A stretch of 41,202 nt of DNA from Pseudomonadota bacterium (lineage in GTDB: Bacteria > Pseudomonadota > Alphaproteobacteria > Micropepsales > Micropepsaceae). This document shows positions 5,498 through 39,795 of this stretch, one piece after another. The stretch spans positions 1 to 41,202 of the forward strand of contig JAFECO010000688.1 in assembly GCA_018242085.1 (NCBI GenBank), given 5' to 3'. The notes under the pieces are model-generated. The model made no database searches. It saw only the letters and a program-made list of their open reading frames with translations, and was not told the origin of the DNA. A program made the position numbers and the translations under genes. Each line of letters starts with the position of its first letter. Position 1 is the first letter of the stretch.

Positions 5498-5581
5498 GCC
5501 CCCATCTGTGCGGCACGCGGGCAAGCCCGCTACCGCACATCTTCCCCCGCTAGCCCTGCGGGCGCGGGGGGAAGAAAGTCC
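5498..5581 (+). repeat. Two-hairpin intergenic repeat, copy 1
   Basis: GCCCCCATCTGT-[stem, GCAAGC tip]-ACATCTTCCCCC-[stem]-GGGGGAAGAAAG. Confidence 0.92.
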
Positions 5582-5639
5582 GTGTGCGCTTCTGGGCTCG
5601 ATGCGATAGCATCCCGGCCCAACCCGCTTTCAGGACAAC

Positions 5640-6584
5640 ATGCCGCTCGACCCTTTGGTGAAAGCCTTTCTCGATCAGGCGGCGGCGATTCCGCGGCCCA
5701 AGGCATGGGAGATGCCGCTCTCCGCCTCGCGCAAAGGGTTTGCCGGGATGATGGGACTGGTCGGCCCCCAGGATGTTCCCGTCGGTCGAATCGAGAATTT
5801 CAAGATACCGGGACCCAGAGGCGACATCCGCGCCCGCGCCTATGCGCCCATCGCGGTGGGCGGCGATGCCCAGCCCGTGCTGGTCTATTTTCACGGCGGC
5901 GGTTTTGTCGTGGGCGACCTCAATACCCATGACGGGCTTTGCCGGCTGTTTGCCCATGAAGGCGGGTTTCGCGTCATCGCGGTGGAGTACCGCCTGGCGC
6001 CGGAACACAAATGGCCCGCGCCATTGGATGATGCGGCGGCAGCGCTGCAATGGATATTCGACAATGCCACGGCGCTGGGCGTGGATGCGGGCCGCATCGC
6101 GGTCGGTGGGGACTCCGCCGGGGCGTTGCTGACGGCCTGTCTGACGCAGCTCATGAAGAAGAAGGGCGGGGCGGCGATCGCTTTCCAGATGCTTCTGTTC
6201 CCGTCGACCGACCTGGCCGGACACTTTGCGTCGATGGACAAATTCGGTGTCGGCTATTTCCTCGATCGCCAAACCATCGAATGGAATAACAATCAGCTTT
6301 TTCCGCACGATATCGACAGAAGTTCGCCCGAAATCTCACCCCTGCGAGCCAAGAATTTTGCGGGCTTGCCCCCTGCCTACATCATGCTGGCGGGCTACGA
6401 CCCCTTGCATGACGAGGGGCTGGCCTATGCGCAGAAATTGAAAGAGGCGGGCGTGCGGGTGACCGTCGCGGACCATCCGGAAATGGTCCATTGCTTTATC
6501 TATCTGCAGACGGTCTTGCCGCAAGCGCATGAGGCGGTAGCCGCCGCCGCGAAAGCGGTGCGCGATGCGTTGGCGATGGCGTGA
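5640..6584 (+). CDS. Alpha/beta hydrolase, HSL (family IV) esterase
   Basis: HGGG oxyanion motif, GDSAG nucleophile, DPLHDEG, and His in MVHCF. Confidence 0.95.
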   Translation: MPLDPLVKAFLDQAAAIPRPKAWEMPLSASRKGFAGMMGLVGPQDVPVGRIENFKIPGPRGDIRARAYAPIAVGGDAQPVLVYFHGGGFVVGDLNTHDGLCRLFAHEGGFRVIAVEYRLAPEHKWPAPLDDAAAALQWIFDNATALGVDAGRIAVGGDSAGALLTACLTQLMKKKGGAAIAFQMLLFPSTDLAGHFASMDKFGVGYFLDRQTIEWNNNQLFPHDIDRSSPEISPLRAKNFAGLPPAYIMLAGYDPLHDEGLAYAQKLKEAGVRVTVADHPEMVHCFIYLQTVLPQAHEAVAAAAKAVRDALAMA

Positions 6585-6607
6585 GGAAAGGCGGGTAAGC
6601 GGAACGC

Positions 6608-6775
6608 TTACTTGATCTTGCCTTCCTTGAATTCGACGTGCTTGCGCAGGACGGGATCATATTTCTTGATCGAGAATTTTTCCGTCATGGTGCGGGTGTT
6701 CTTCTTGGCGACATAGAAAAAGCCGGTATTGCCTTCGCTGTTGAGGCGAATTTTGGCAGTGGTGGGCTTGGCCAT
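6608..6775 (-). CDS. rpmG: 50S ribosomal protein L33 (Zn-free form)
   Basis: Manual translation [61 protein letters not shown]. Not in the ORF track. Confidence 0.97.
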
Positions 6776-6865
6776 GGCGGACTCCAGAAGAAACAGGTCG
6801 AACGGGGCGGGTTTGTGAGGGATGGACCCAATTCTGTCAAGCGGACCCGGTCAATATCCTGAAAT

Positions 6866-9106
6866 TCAACGTTTTTTCGGCTTGAACCGGCGCTTTTCCC
6901 GATCCTGGCGGCCCTTTGCCGGCTTGGGCGGCCGGTGGGCGCGGGCGGGAATCGCCCCGCCTTCCGCCAACTCGAAGCGCATGCCGCCGGTCACGGGGGC
7001 GGCCTCCATCAGCTTGACCGTGACGGCATCGCCCATTCCGTAAGTCGTGTCGGTGCGCTCGCCCCGCATGGTCTGGGCCCGCTCGTCATGGCGGAAATAT
7101 TCCGCGCCAAGGGAGCGCGCCGGCAAAAGACCTTCGGCGCCCGACTCCTTCAAGCGCACGAACAGCCCGAATTTGGTGACCCCTGTGATGCGCGCTTCGA
7201 ACGTGGCGCCGACCCGGTCCTGCATGAAGGCGGCGACATAGCGGTCGGTGGAATCGCGTTCGGCGGCCATGGCGCGCCGTTCCGTGAGCGAGATCGCCTG
7301 GGCGATCTCCGCCAGCTGCTTGATCTCGCGGTCGGTGAGGCCGTCGCCGCCGCCCAGCTTCAGGCCCCGGATCAAAGCGCGGTGCACGATCAGGTCGGCA
7401 TAGCGCCGGATCGGCGAGGTGAAATGCGCGTATTTCGCCAGGTTGAGGCCGAAATGGCCGATATTGGCGGCGTCATAGATCGCCTGGGCCTGGCTGCGCA
7501 GGACCACATCGTTCATCACCGCTTCATGCGGCGTACCTTTCGCCTGGGAGAGGATGCGGTTGAAAGTGCCCGGCTGCATCACCTGGCCCTTGGCGAAGTT
7601 TATATTCAGGGTACGGAGGAAATCGGAAAAGGCGTAAAGCTTCTCGCGCGACGGCGTGTCGTGAACGCGGTAGATGAGGGGCGTGCGCGCCTTCTCCAAC
7701 GCCTCGGCGGCGGCGACATTGGCCAAGACCATGCACTCTTCGATCAGGCGCATGGATTCCAGCCGCTCGCGATAGGCGATGCTGGCGACATGGCCGTCGG
7801 CGCCCAGCTGGATGCGCCGCTCCGGCAGGTCGAGGTCCAGGGGACTGCGTTTCTCGCGTGCAACCACAAGCGACTGATAGGCGGACCATAGATCGGCCAA
7901 GGTCTTACGCACCGTCGCGCTCATCTCCGCGTCCGGCTTGCCGTCAAAGGCCGCTTGCGCCCGCGCATAAGTCAGCCGCGCCGCCGAGCGCATCACGGCC
8001 CTGAGGAAGGTATGCCCGCGCTTATGGCCATGAGCGTCGAACACCATCCGCACCGCCAGGCAGGGGCGGTCCACGCCTTCCTTCAAGGAACAAAGATCGG
8101 CGGAAAGCTCTTCCGGCAGCATCGGTACGACGCGGTCCGGAAAATAGGCGCTGTTGCCGCGCTTGAGCGCTTCTTTGTCCAGCGCCGAGCCCGGCGTCAC
8201 ATAATGGGCGACATCCGCGATGGCGACCAGAATGACATGGCCGCCCTTGTTGCCGGCATCGTCATCTGGTCCCGCCCAGACCGCGTCGTCGTGATCGCGG
8301 GCGTCTTCCGGGTCGATCGTGACAAGCGGAATTACGCGCAGATCCGTGCGCCCGCGCGGGTCCACGGGCTTTGCCACGCCGGCTTCTTCCAGTACCGAAG
8401 GGGGGAAGACGGTGGGGATGCCATGCGCGTGAATGGCGATCAGGCTGATGGTGCGCGGGCTGTCCATGCTGCCGATGCGTTCCACCACGCGCACTTTGGG
8501 AAAGCCGGCGGATTTGCGGCCCACCGGTTCGCACAGCACCAGATCGTTGTTCTTCGCGTCGGCCGCATCGGCGCGATCGAGCGCATATTCGCCCCGCGCT
8601 TTGCGGTCCACCGGCAGCACGCGAAAGCCGGTGCCGGTCGCGCGCAGAACGCCGAGAATGCGCTCGGGGCCCGTCTCGTCTTCCAGCCGGCGCACGATGA
8701 CCGCTTCATAGCTTTCGCCGCGCCGCTCCAGCCGTCCCAGAATGCGATGGCCTGCCGTCAGCGCGGCGCCGTCTTTGGGCGGCGCGACATAGATCGGCGG
8801 GGGCTCGTTGTTGGATTCCCAGGCCAGCGGCCGCGCCAGCAATTCGCCGTCCGCATCGGTGCCGGTGATCTCCAGCACCGCGATGTCCGGCAACTCGCCC
8901 GCTTTGGTCAGGCCGCGTTTGGCTTTGCCTTCGATGGCGCCTTCCGCTTCCAGTTCCCGCAACAGCCGCTTGAGGACGATGCGATCCGATCCCTTGAGGC
9001 CTGTAATGCGCGCCAGATCCCGCTTGGTGGCGCCGGGATGTTCGGCGAGCAGGGCAAGCAGCCGGGCCTTGTCGAGCGGAGGCGCGTTGGTGGCGCGGCG
9101 CGGCAA
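6866..9106 (-). CDS. rnr: Ribonuclease R
   Basis: TIDPEDARDHDDA, HFTSPIRRYADL and a C-terminal S1 domain. The TTG start abuts the topA stop and is uncertain. Confidence 0.96.
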   Translation of the reverse strand: MPRRATNAPPLDKARLLALLAEHPGATKRDLARITGLKGSDRIVLKRLLRELEAEGAIEGKAKRGLTKAGELPDIAVLEITGTDADGELLARPLAWESNNEPPPIYVAPPKDGAALTAGHRILGRLERRGESYEAVIVRRLEDETGPERILGVLRATGTGFRVLPVDRKARGEYALDRADAADAKNNDLVLCEPVGRKSAGFPKVRVVERIGSMDSPRTISLIAIHAHGIPTVFPPSVLEEAGVAKPVDPRGRTDLRVIPLVTIDPEDARDHDDAVWAGPDDDAGNKGGHVILVAIADVAHYVTPGSALDKEALKRGNSAYFPDRVVPMLPEELSADLCSLKEGVDRPCLAVRMVFDAHGHKRGHTFLRAVMRSAARLTYARAQAAFDGKPDAEMSATVRKTLADLWSAYQSLVVAREKRSPLDLDLPERRIQLGADGHVASIAYRERLESMRLIEECMVLANVAAAEALEKARTPLIYRVHDTPSREKLYAFSDFLRTLNINFAKGQVMQPGTFNRILSQAKGTPHEAVMNDVVLRSQAQAIYDAANIGHFGLNLAKYAHFTSPIRRYADLIVHRALIRGLKLGGGDGLTDREIKQLAEIAQAISLTERRAMAAERDSTDRYVAAFMQDRVGATFEARITGVTKFGLFVRLKESGAEGLLPARSLGAEYFRHDERAQTMRGERTDTTYGMGDAVTVKLMEAAPVTGGMRFELAEGGAIPARAHRPPKPAKGRQDREKRRFKPKKR

Positions 9107-39559: not shown

Positions 39560-39573
39560 TGGACGGTCGGGTC

Positions 39574-39654
39574 TTATGCGTGGCCGGTCACCAGCCAGAG
39601 AATGATGATGATCGGCAATGGAATGCCGATCGCCCACAGAAGCACCGAGCGCAT
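39574..39654 (-). CDS. 26-aa hydrophobic microprotein
   Basis: MRSVLLWAIGIPLPIIIILWLVTGHA with SD GGTGGAG upstream. Below the ORF-track cutoff. Confidence 0.75.
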   Translation of the reverse strand: MRSVLLWAIGIPLPIIIILWLVTGHA

Positions 39655-39682
39655 GTTTCTCTCCACCTTTTGCTGGAGAGAT

Positions 39683-39707
39683 AACCGAGCTTTAGGGAAG
39701 CAGTTCC
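39683..39707 (-). promoter_or_regulatory. EcfG/SigT (general stress response) type promoter
   Basis: Minus strand GGAAC-N16-GGTT, 28 nt upstream of the microprotein ATG. Confidence 0.6.
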
Positions 39708-39714
39708 GAGTATG

Positions 39715-39795
39715 GGCTTTCTTCCCCCCATGCGGCGGAGCCGCTGATGGGGGAAGATGTCTCTGAGCGCTTGCGCGAAAGAGACAGATGGGGGC
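39715..39795 (-). repeat. Two-hairpin intergenic repeat, copy 4
   Basis: On +: CTTTCTTCCCCCC...GGCGGAGCC...GGGGGAAGATGT...GCGCTTGCGC...ACAGATGGGGGC. Confidence 0.92.

Follow-up and report, generated by a model that had tools for sequence, protein, structure and literature searches.

The 41,202-nucleotide (nt) contig JAFECO010000688.1 of a Micropepsaceae bacterium (GenBank assembly GCA_018242085.1), referred to here as the window, carries four copies of a module that is a gene-less member of a dispersed intergenic repeat. Approximately 80 such intergenic modules are found in the source genome. Their G-rich strand is predicted from its sequence to fold, as single-stranded DNA (ssDNA), into a purine-motif triplex of the BoxC type with two hairpins as caps. 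It is reasonably probable that these modules constitute a dispersed mirror-tract repeat with a triplex-folding G strand, spread or reshuffled by a DUF559 (Vsr-like) nuclease that recognizes the fold. The source genome is 2.84 Mb in 710 contigs (91% complete, with contig breaks at repeats), and its genes were called with a codon model made for this analysis.

Read on the G-rich strand, the main module form (type A) consists of a pyrimidine tract, the arms of hairpin 1, the purine tract GGGGGAAGA, a single T, hairpin 2 and the sequence AG(A/T)TGGGGG. Its 3' arm, AGATGGGGG, mirrors GGGGGAAGA, and only A or T occurs opposite A. The two hairpins agree with a previous sequence-only reading of the window, which missed both the mirror third strand characteristic of the BoxC/PIT/TM triplex class and the second module type described below. 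A structure-only scan of the source genome gave 154 pyrimidine/purine hairpin matches, each hairpin being counted on both strands. Among the 152 asymmetric matches, an exact mirror tract lies downstream in 64 and an exact direct repeat in 2 (73 versus 27 with one mismatch allowed). Triads and loops were counted in 72 parsed copies from the source genome, anchored on the hairpins only so that the third strand was unconstrained. Opposite A, the tail has A or T at 164 of 172 positions; opposite G, it has G at 354 of 379. The linker T is kept in 67 of the 72 copies. The outer T-A "pair" previously assigned to the second stem is probably not a pair, because the first base after hairpin 2 tracks the last purine of the tract (69/72). 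Loci from the wider genome collection had been preselected for A or T at third-strand positions, so their triad table is not independent and was not used as evidence. The triplex stem has 8-9 triads, within the published range of 6-15.

Class II intrastrand triplexes are composed of pyrimidine, purine and reverse-Hoogsteen strands, with G.G-C and A/T.A-T triads (Holder et al. 2015, PMC4666352). The T that commonly stands opposite A is allowed in such a fold of the G strand, whereas it would be a mismatch if the C strand folded in the pyrimidine motif. The G strand also folds more stably than the C strand in 60 of the 72 copies as DNA and in 66 as RNA. Purine-motif triplexes are stated not to form in RNA (PMC4666352), and d(GNA) loops closed by a C-G pair are described as unusually stable in DNA (PMC3201870). 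The proposal that the module acts as a one-strand fold of DNA is backed by the mirror rule with T opposite A, by the GNA loops and by an excess of G-T over A-C in other genomes (17 to 5). A G-quadruplex was also considered; the module has just two conserved runs of five G residues.

Both loops of the predicted triplex are themselves covarying hairpins, which in the window copies measure 17-20 nt for loop 1 and 28-32 nt for loop 2. In 52 aligned copies (the four from the window and 48 of the 113 listed collection loci, with relatedness not corrected), 91.6% of stem cells are paired compared to 82.3% in shuffles, with hairpin 2 reaching 98.9%. Two-sided changes occur in 103 cells compared to 29.8 in shuffles, a count that overstates the number of independent events because the arms are a limited set of alleles common to several species. 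Together with the triad rule, this covariation supports the claim that selection acts on the fold over the arm sequence. The hairpin loops, previously called invariant, are preferred only: C(GNA)G is present in 56 and C(TT)G in 41 of the 72 parsed copies. Mirror symmetry is not made by ordinary templated copying, yet the three tracts change together, which argues that the triplex is under selection. The triplex probably forms transiently in vivo.

The four window copies, all of type A, lie where the sequence-only reading had placed them, with copies 1 and 2 on the minus strand and copies 3 and 4 on the plus strand. Their second-stem arms and first loops (GCA, GAA, GAA and GGA, each closed by C-G) also match that description. 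The first-hairpin pattern has four matches in the window, which are these four copies, and none in 200 dinucleotide shuffles of it. At gathering threshold, Rfam reports only two tRNAs in the window and has no match at the modules. Copy 1 (5499..5579, minus strand) is parsed exactly into a pyrimidine tract (5566-5575), hairpin-1 arms with a C(GCA)G loop (5549-5565), a purine tract (5540-5548), the linker T (5539), hairpin 2 (5508-5538) and the AG(A/T)TGGGGG mirror third strand (5499-5507). Copy 2 (23148..23226, minus strand), in which the third strand is an AGTT allele, has a pyrimidine tract at 23214-23222, hairpin-1 arms with a C(GAA)G loop at 23195-23213, a purine tract at 23186-23194, the linker T at 23185, hairpin 2 at 23157-23184 and the third strand at 23148-23156. 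Copy 3 (36357..36440, plus strand) lies between era and recO and is also parsed exactly, into a pyrimidine tract (36362-36370), hairpin-1 arms (36371-36390), a purine tract (36391-36399), the linker T (36400), hairpin 2 (36401-36431) and a third strand (36432-36440). Copy 4 (39715..39794, plus strand), again an exact parsing, has its pyrimidine tract at 39720-39729, hairpin-1 arms with a C(GGA)G loop at 39730-39748, purine tract at 39749-39757, linker T at 39758, hairpin 2 at 39759-39785 and third strand at 39786-39794.

Three of the copies adjoin stop codons, ending at 5494, 23144 and 39799, from which the C-run starts after 4, 3 and 4 nt, respectively (2-3 nt by the boundaries drawn previously). 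The third-strand end of copy 1 faces the stop of an 83-amino-acid open reading frame (ORF) with no Pfam match (5243..5494, plus strand); an esterase gene is a further host neighbor besides this ORF. Copy 2 abuts the stop of a host glutathione S-transferase gene (22401..23144, plus strand), and copy 4 that of a convergent SpoU-family rRNA methyltransferase gene (39799..40608, minus strand). Copy 3 is preceded by era, encoding a GTPase with a KH domain (35428..36348, plus strand), and its third strand stops 8 nt before the ATG of recO (36449..37174, plus strand), a ribosome-binding-site spacing.

In the source genome, a motif search gives 54 copies and a hidden Markov model (HMM) search 70 rows at E<1e-3, against a best E-value of 2.4 on the reversed genome. 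Forms with one or three hairpins are among these rows. The final module table had 80 rows, of which one mis-parse (contig C654, minus strand) was removed, and none of the 79 retained modules overlaps a called gene. Of 150 genomes from the genus, 32 contain the strict pattern, as do none of 16 genomes from other families. At least 113 type-A loci are found in the genome collection, mostly in Rhizomicrobium, Micropepsales or unclassified Alphaproteobacteria records, and viral contigs contain no match to the module. The structure-only scan also identified type B, which has the purine tract GGGGGAGG and the tail GGAGGGGG; rarer forms have GAGA / AG(A/T)G. In each case, the change of purine tract between types is accompanied by a change of pyrimidine tract and tail. 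All 12 opposite-strand back-to-back pairs in the source genome combine one type-A and one type-B module, mostly joined by a conserved 42-49-nt spacer, and many monomers retain a shortened piece of this spacer as a leader.

Both module types can contain plug-in hairpins that start with GTGAG or GTTCG and end with GAACG. Such plug-ins also occur inside a hairpin flanking a GIY-YIG gene and inside DUF559-flanking modules of other genomes. A scan for them gave 31 matches compared to 16 in a reversed control, and hence only those inside repeats are noted (source-genome contigs C134, C178, C199, C552, C688, C696, C173, C273, C112 and C641 at position 191, the last at locus L001; elsewhere, loci L285 and L286). 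These hairpins suggest that modules are exchanged between repeat families.

The placement of the 79 modules is strongly polar. In 52 of them the third-strand end points toward a stop codon and in 22 toward a start codon, the other 5 having no called gene on that side. This end lies within 12 nt of a stop in 46 modules and 4-15 nt before a start in 6, including copy 3, and the opposite end is never less than 11 nt from a gene. Convergent intergenic sites outnumber divergent ones (23 versus 6) on a genome-wide background of 399:412. The non-coding tail after the G-run is 62% A, compared to 19.5% at the equivalent position behind ordinary stop codons. The polarity is repeated in the relative G098, in which 14 of 19 modules in 470,800 bases face a stop, 12 of them within 11 nt. 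Modules that face a start place the G-run at the distance of a ribosome-binding site, as seen for recO (36432-36451) and for a DUF559 gene in another genome (L188). Such a module may represent an insertion into a coupled gene junction that brings its own translation signal.

This placement is what would be expected of an mRNA element, in which C-rich hairpins past stop codons stabilize 3' ends or affect translation termination and the G-run serves as a ribosome-binding site before starts. The stops faced in 52 of 74 assignable copies, the convergent bias, the repetition in G098 and the six copies close to start codons all fit this explanation. It does not account for the mirror rule, as no Watson-Crick fold requires a mirror tract, and it is the G strand, usually the template, that has the stable loops and the lower folding energies. 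The era-recO site carries either orientation or nothing. An effect on mRNA could be a secondary filter on copy survival and not the origin of the repeat, and the mRNA explanation is considered unlikely. The frequency of modules after stops and between convergent genes would also suit ordinary intrinsic terminators. Of the 79 modules, however, only 7 have a T-rich run after the G strand and only 4 after the C strand, and a terminator scan of positions 23000-41202 reports none of copies 2-4, in keeping with the previous proposal that the copies are not only ordinary terminators. Modules are also not conserved at orthologous sites, and the PIT elements of E. coli are described as having no terminator activity (PMC4666352), making terminators a highly improbable explanation.

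The comparison of filled and empty orthologous sites proposed in the sequence-only reading reveals turnover. The era-recO junction was compared in 20 genomes picked for carrying the repeat, 16 of which have both genes joined: the module is in the same orientation in 7, flipped in 4, absent in 3 and replaced by an unrelated repeat in 2. At 18 sites comparable between the source genome and G098 (flanks 78-93% identical; three of the G098 stretches were picked for holding modules, a bias toward filled sites), a tally by eye gave 7 type-A modules oriented the same way, 3 flipped, 3 of type B, 3 empty and 2 unrelated repeats. None of the 7 modules oriented the same way has both arms identical. At the site of copy 1, G098 has a module in the same orientation with a different hairpin 1 and G012 has no module. 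At the site of copy 2, G111 has a type-A module with the same orientation, G098 a flipped one and G012 one of type B, whereas the site is empty in G131 and holds another repeat in G075. When empty, the spacers that modules occupy are 1-7 nt long. Contigs from four sequencing runs break inside repeats. At one contig end (C96:1-170; L290), a type-A module is connected to a sequence identical to the start of recO; this junction is absent from all four sequencing runs, which carry the form found in the window, and is probably a misassembly through the repeat.

The sequence-only reading had listed DUF559-like proteins among possible partner enzymes. These are the best candidates, by association in other genomes only; no flanked DUF559 gene is found in the 91%-complete source genome. 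A strong DUF559 gene is present in 137 of 201 genomes of the family. The 59 DUF559 loci analyzed are best matches (3 of them from other families and 5 of an unflanked type). An inward-facing class II module is found within 260 nt at 48 of the 59 loci, and on both sides at 35, compared to none of 94 control windows. The linkers of these flanking modules range from 2-3 nt, as in classic BoxC, to hairpins of up to 48 nt. The type-B triad is found among them at L019 and L020, and triads close to type A at L278 and L274. In a Spirochaetota record (L188/L249), the exact type-A layout is separated by 4 nt from the start codon of a DUF559 gene that follows it, with no inverted copy seen within 170 nt downstream. 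At metagenome locus L321, a type-A module and an inverted sister module bracket a DUF559 gene. The third strand of the flanking module faces the gene at L249, L321, L019, L020, L278 and L274. A local HMM search of the source genome found only a contig-end fragment of an unflanked DUF559 homologue (C402; L293). Small unflanked DUF559-like genes of this kind occupy fixed chromosomal positions in the genus (C402/L293; L065-L068; L022-L026). Their products do not have the motifs common to the flanked DUF559 proteins and are likely inactive; possibly, they are domesticated DNA-binding derivatives.

Several observations weigh against a DUF559-driven triplex repeat. No DUF559 gene is detected in the source genome at E<=0.001, although absence is unproven in an assembly of 710 contigs. 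Among five high-copy relatives, none has a repeat-flanked DUF559 gene: G145 has no match and G098, G085, G111 and G061 have weak unflanked matches. Because no flanked DUF559 gene is found in these high-copy genomes and 137 of 201 family genomes carry a strong one, the number of copies of this subtype is not correlated with the presence of the candidate enzyme. Among the type-A loci listed, only 2 of 113 are adjacent to DUF559. A first metagenome pattern joining type A to DUF559 codons had no match; a second type-A/DUF559 pattern gave 57 matches (52 distinct), of which L321 is real and the rest are due to chance. The excess of G-T over A-C is not significant in the source genome (3 to 0), no target-site duplication or precise excision scar can be read at empty orthologous sites, and the stop-codon polarity could equally stem from selection on mRNA. 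Holder et al. saw no triplex in E. coli footprints made in vivo, and duplex DNA likewise gave no stable one (PMC4666352).

The high-copy clade without flanked DUF559 would be expected if the repeat were passive or fossil-like. Under this explanation, the triplex-prone strand stalls replication, host recombination homogenizes, flips and swaps the copies, and DUF559 genes merely sit between repeats. TM loci have been linked to instability and to polymerase arrest in vitro (PMC4666352), and by eye the single-hairpin copies fit slippage between short direct repeats. A passive repeat does not explain entry into empty spacers of 1-7 nt, the fixed end beside A-rich DNA or the tight inward-facing bracketing of DUF559 genes, and it is judged improbable. 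It is also conceivable that the modules are classical repetitive extragenic palindromic (REP) elements or REPINs moved by a RAYT/HUH enzyme, or that they are moved by the small GIY-YIG nucleases of the source genome. Intergenic hairpins, inverted dimers and site replacement do resemble REP elements. The HUH/RAYT partner suggested previously is not found, with no PF01797 match in the source genome, and the modules have no unpaired GTAG or CGTC tag. GIY-YIG genes flanked by the module had also been suggested. The source genome has four GIY-YIG matches, and of three viewed, two are small genes and one is UvrC-like by eye. The two small genes are flanked by a different hairpin family, and movement by any of these enzymes is very unlikely. 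These genes (L001, C641:271-489; L002, C690:5191-5412) lie between inverted GTCAT-type hairpin repeats and constitute a second repeat-nuclease pairing in the source genome. A search for genes lying between paired inward-facing modules within 3.5 kb in this genome gave two cases, both with host-type genes.

The proposed model for the spread of the mirror-tract repeat by a DUF559 nuclease is as follows. The G-rich strand would be exposed as ssDNA and transiently fold into a triplex. A DUF559 nuclease would recognize this fold and nick at or near it, and repair-type copying from another module would follow. The third-strand end would join A/T-rich DNA beside a stop codon, forming the fixed end, and the other end would be left with a variably shortened leader. 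What the sequences themselves establish is the tract order, the joint change of tracts, the A+B dimers, the gain, loss, inversion and type swap at sites, and the fixed end beside A-rich DNA and gene ends. The nick-initiated copying that would create a fixed third-strand end and a shortened leader is put forward tentatively. The enzyme may perhaps be a DUF559 protein that was lost by the lineage or is missing from the assembly, a proposal with nearly even chances. With a named candidate enzyme, natural flipped, empty and swapped alleles and short oligonucleotides, the question is directly testable.

The window has two further features. Another palindromic intergenic repeat occurs twice (669-705 and 26810-26862) and again at L004, and presumably resembles the Caulobacter CIR / Brucella BRU-RS class. 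A 35-amino-acid lysine/alanine-rich ORF (22017-22124) follows a gatB-like gene and appears histone-like by eye.

The bracketed genes belong to the same protein family (DUF559, PF04480) as Caulobacter VsrA, which behaves in vivo as an SOS-linked endonuclease. VsrA causes an SOS response in mutants of the methylase, and T:G mismatches are its proposed nicking target (PMC12907096). The VsrA data support nuclease activity for DUF559 proteins, yet they offer a competing role in T:G mismatch repair, and the VsrA account consulted mentions no flanking repeats. A literature search found no paper linking DUF559 with triplexes, subscription journals being mostly outside its coverage. It also found nothing describing this module, although the supplements of PMC4666352 may list alphaproteobacterial TMs. 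Like REP, BIME and REPIN elements, the modules are non-autonomous intergenic hairpins with two-type dimers and lineage-specific expansion, and a candidate enzyme gene is bracketed by inverted copies (Di Nocera et al. 2013, PMC3733652; that paper makes no mention of BoxC, RIME or DUF559). Unlike REP/RAYT systems, they have a mirror third strand, the GTC bases at the bottom of hairpin 2 are paired, and the candidate enzyme is a PD-(D/E)XK Vsr-like protein and not an HUH protein. A doubtful extension of the model is that DUF559 nucleases and triplex repeats of the BoxC type together make up a mobile system like REP-RAYT but with a different chemistry, in which a Vsr-fold nickase reads three-stranded ssDNA and copies modules end-first into A/T-rich DNA beside stops. 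The rhizobial element RIME1 also consists of two palindromic units. The rhizobial RIME and the AB and C motifs, set alongside the modules by description only, are likewise intergenic mosaic palindromic repeats of Alphaproteobacteria with an obscure function (PMC2573895).

The closest likeness is to BoxC/PIT/TMECO, repeats that after three decades still have no function or origin assigned to them and no proof of a triplex in vivo (PMC4666352). The same source describes their strand order, triads, 8-9-triad stem, exclusively intergenic position, two types and unstable loci, all of which are shared with the modules. Inverted pairs are always A+B in both (5 of 5 TM pairs in E. coli, 12 of 12 in the source genome). 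The modules differ in tract sequence and in their loops, which are hairpins of 17-20 and 28-32 nt into which others can be plugged, as opposed to loops of 1-6 nt. Their placement is strongly polar with respect to stop codons, a distance trend that is absent in E. coli TMs, and their three-way covariation is visible within one genome. Published loop limits are 1-6 nt (ITxF) and 0-10 nt (Hoyne). Because the loops exceed these limits, the module is a variant of the BoxC/TM class and not a member by the published definition, and the class is probably larger than counted since the published triplex finder cannot detect modules with hairpin loops. Under the doubtful reading as a REP-RAYT-like system, the three-way covariation would prove, on evolutionary grounds, both the formation and the selection of intrastrand DNA triplexes in bacteria, where hairpins could freely take the place of the loops.

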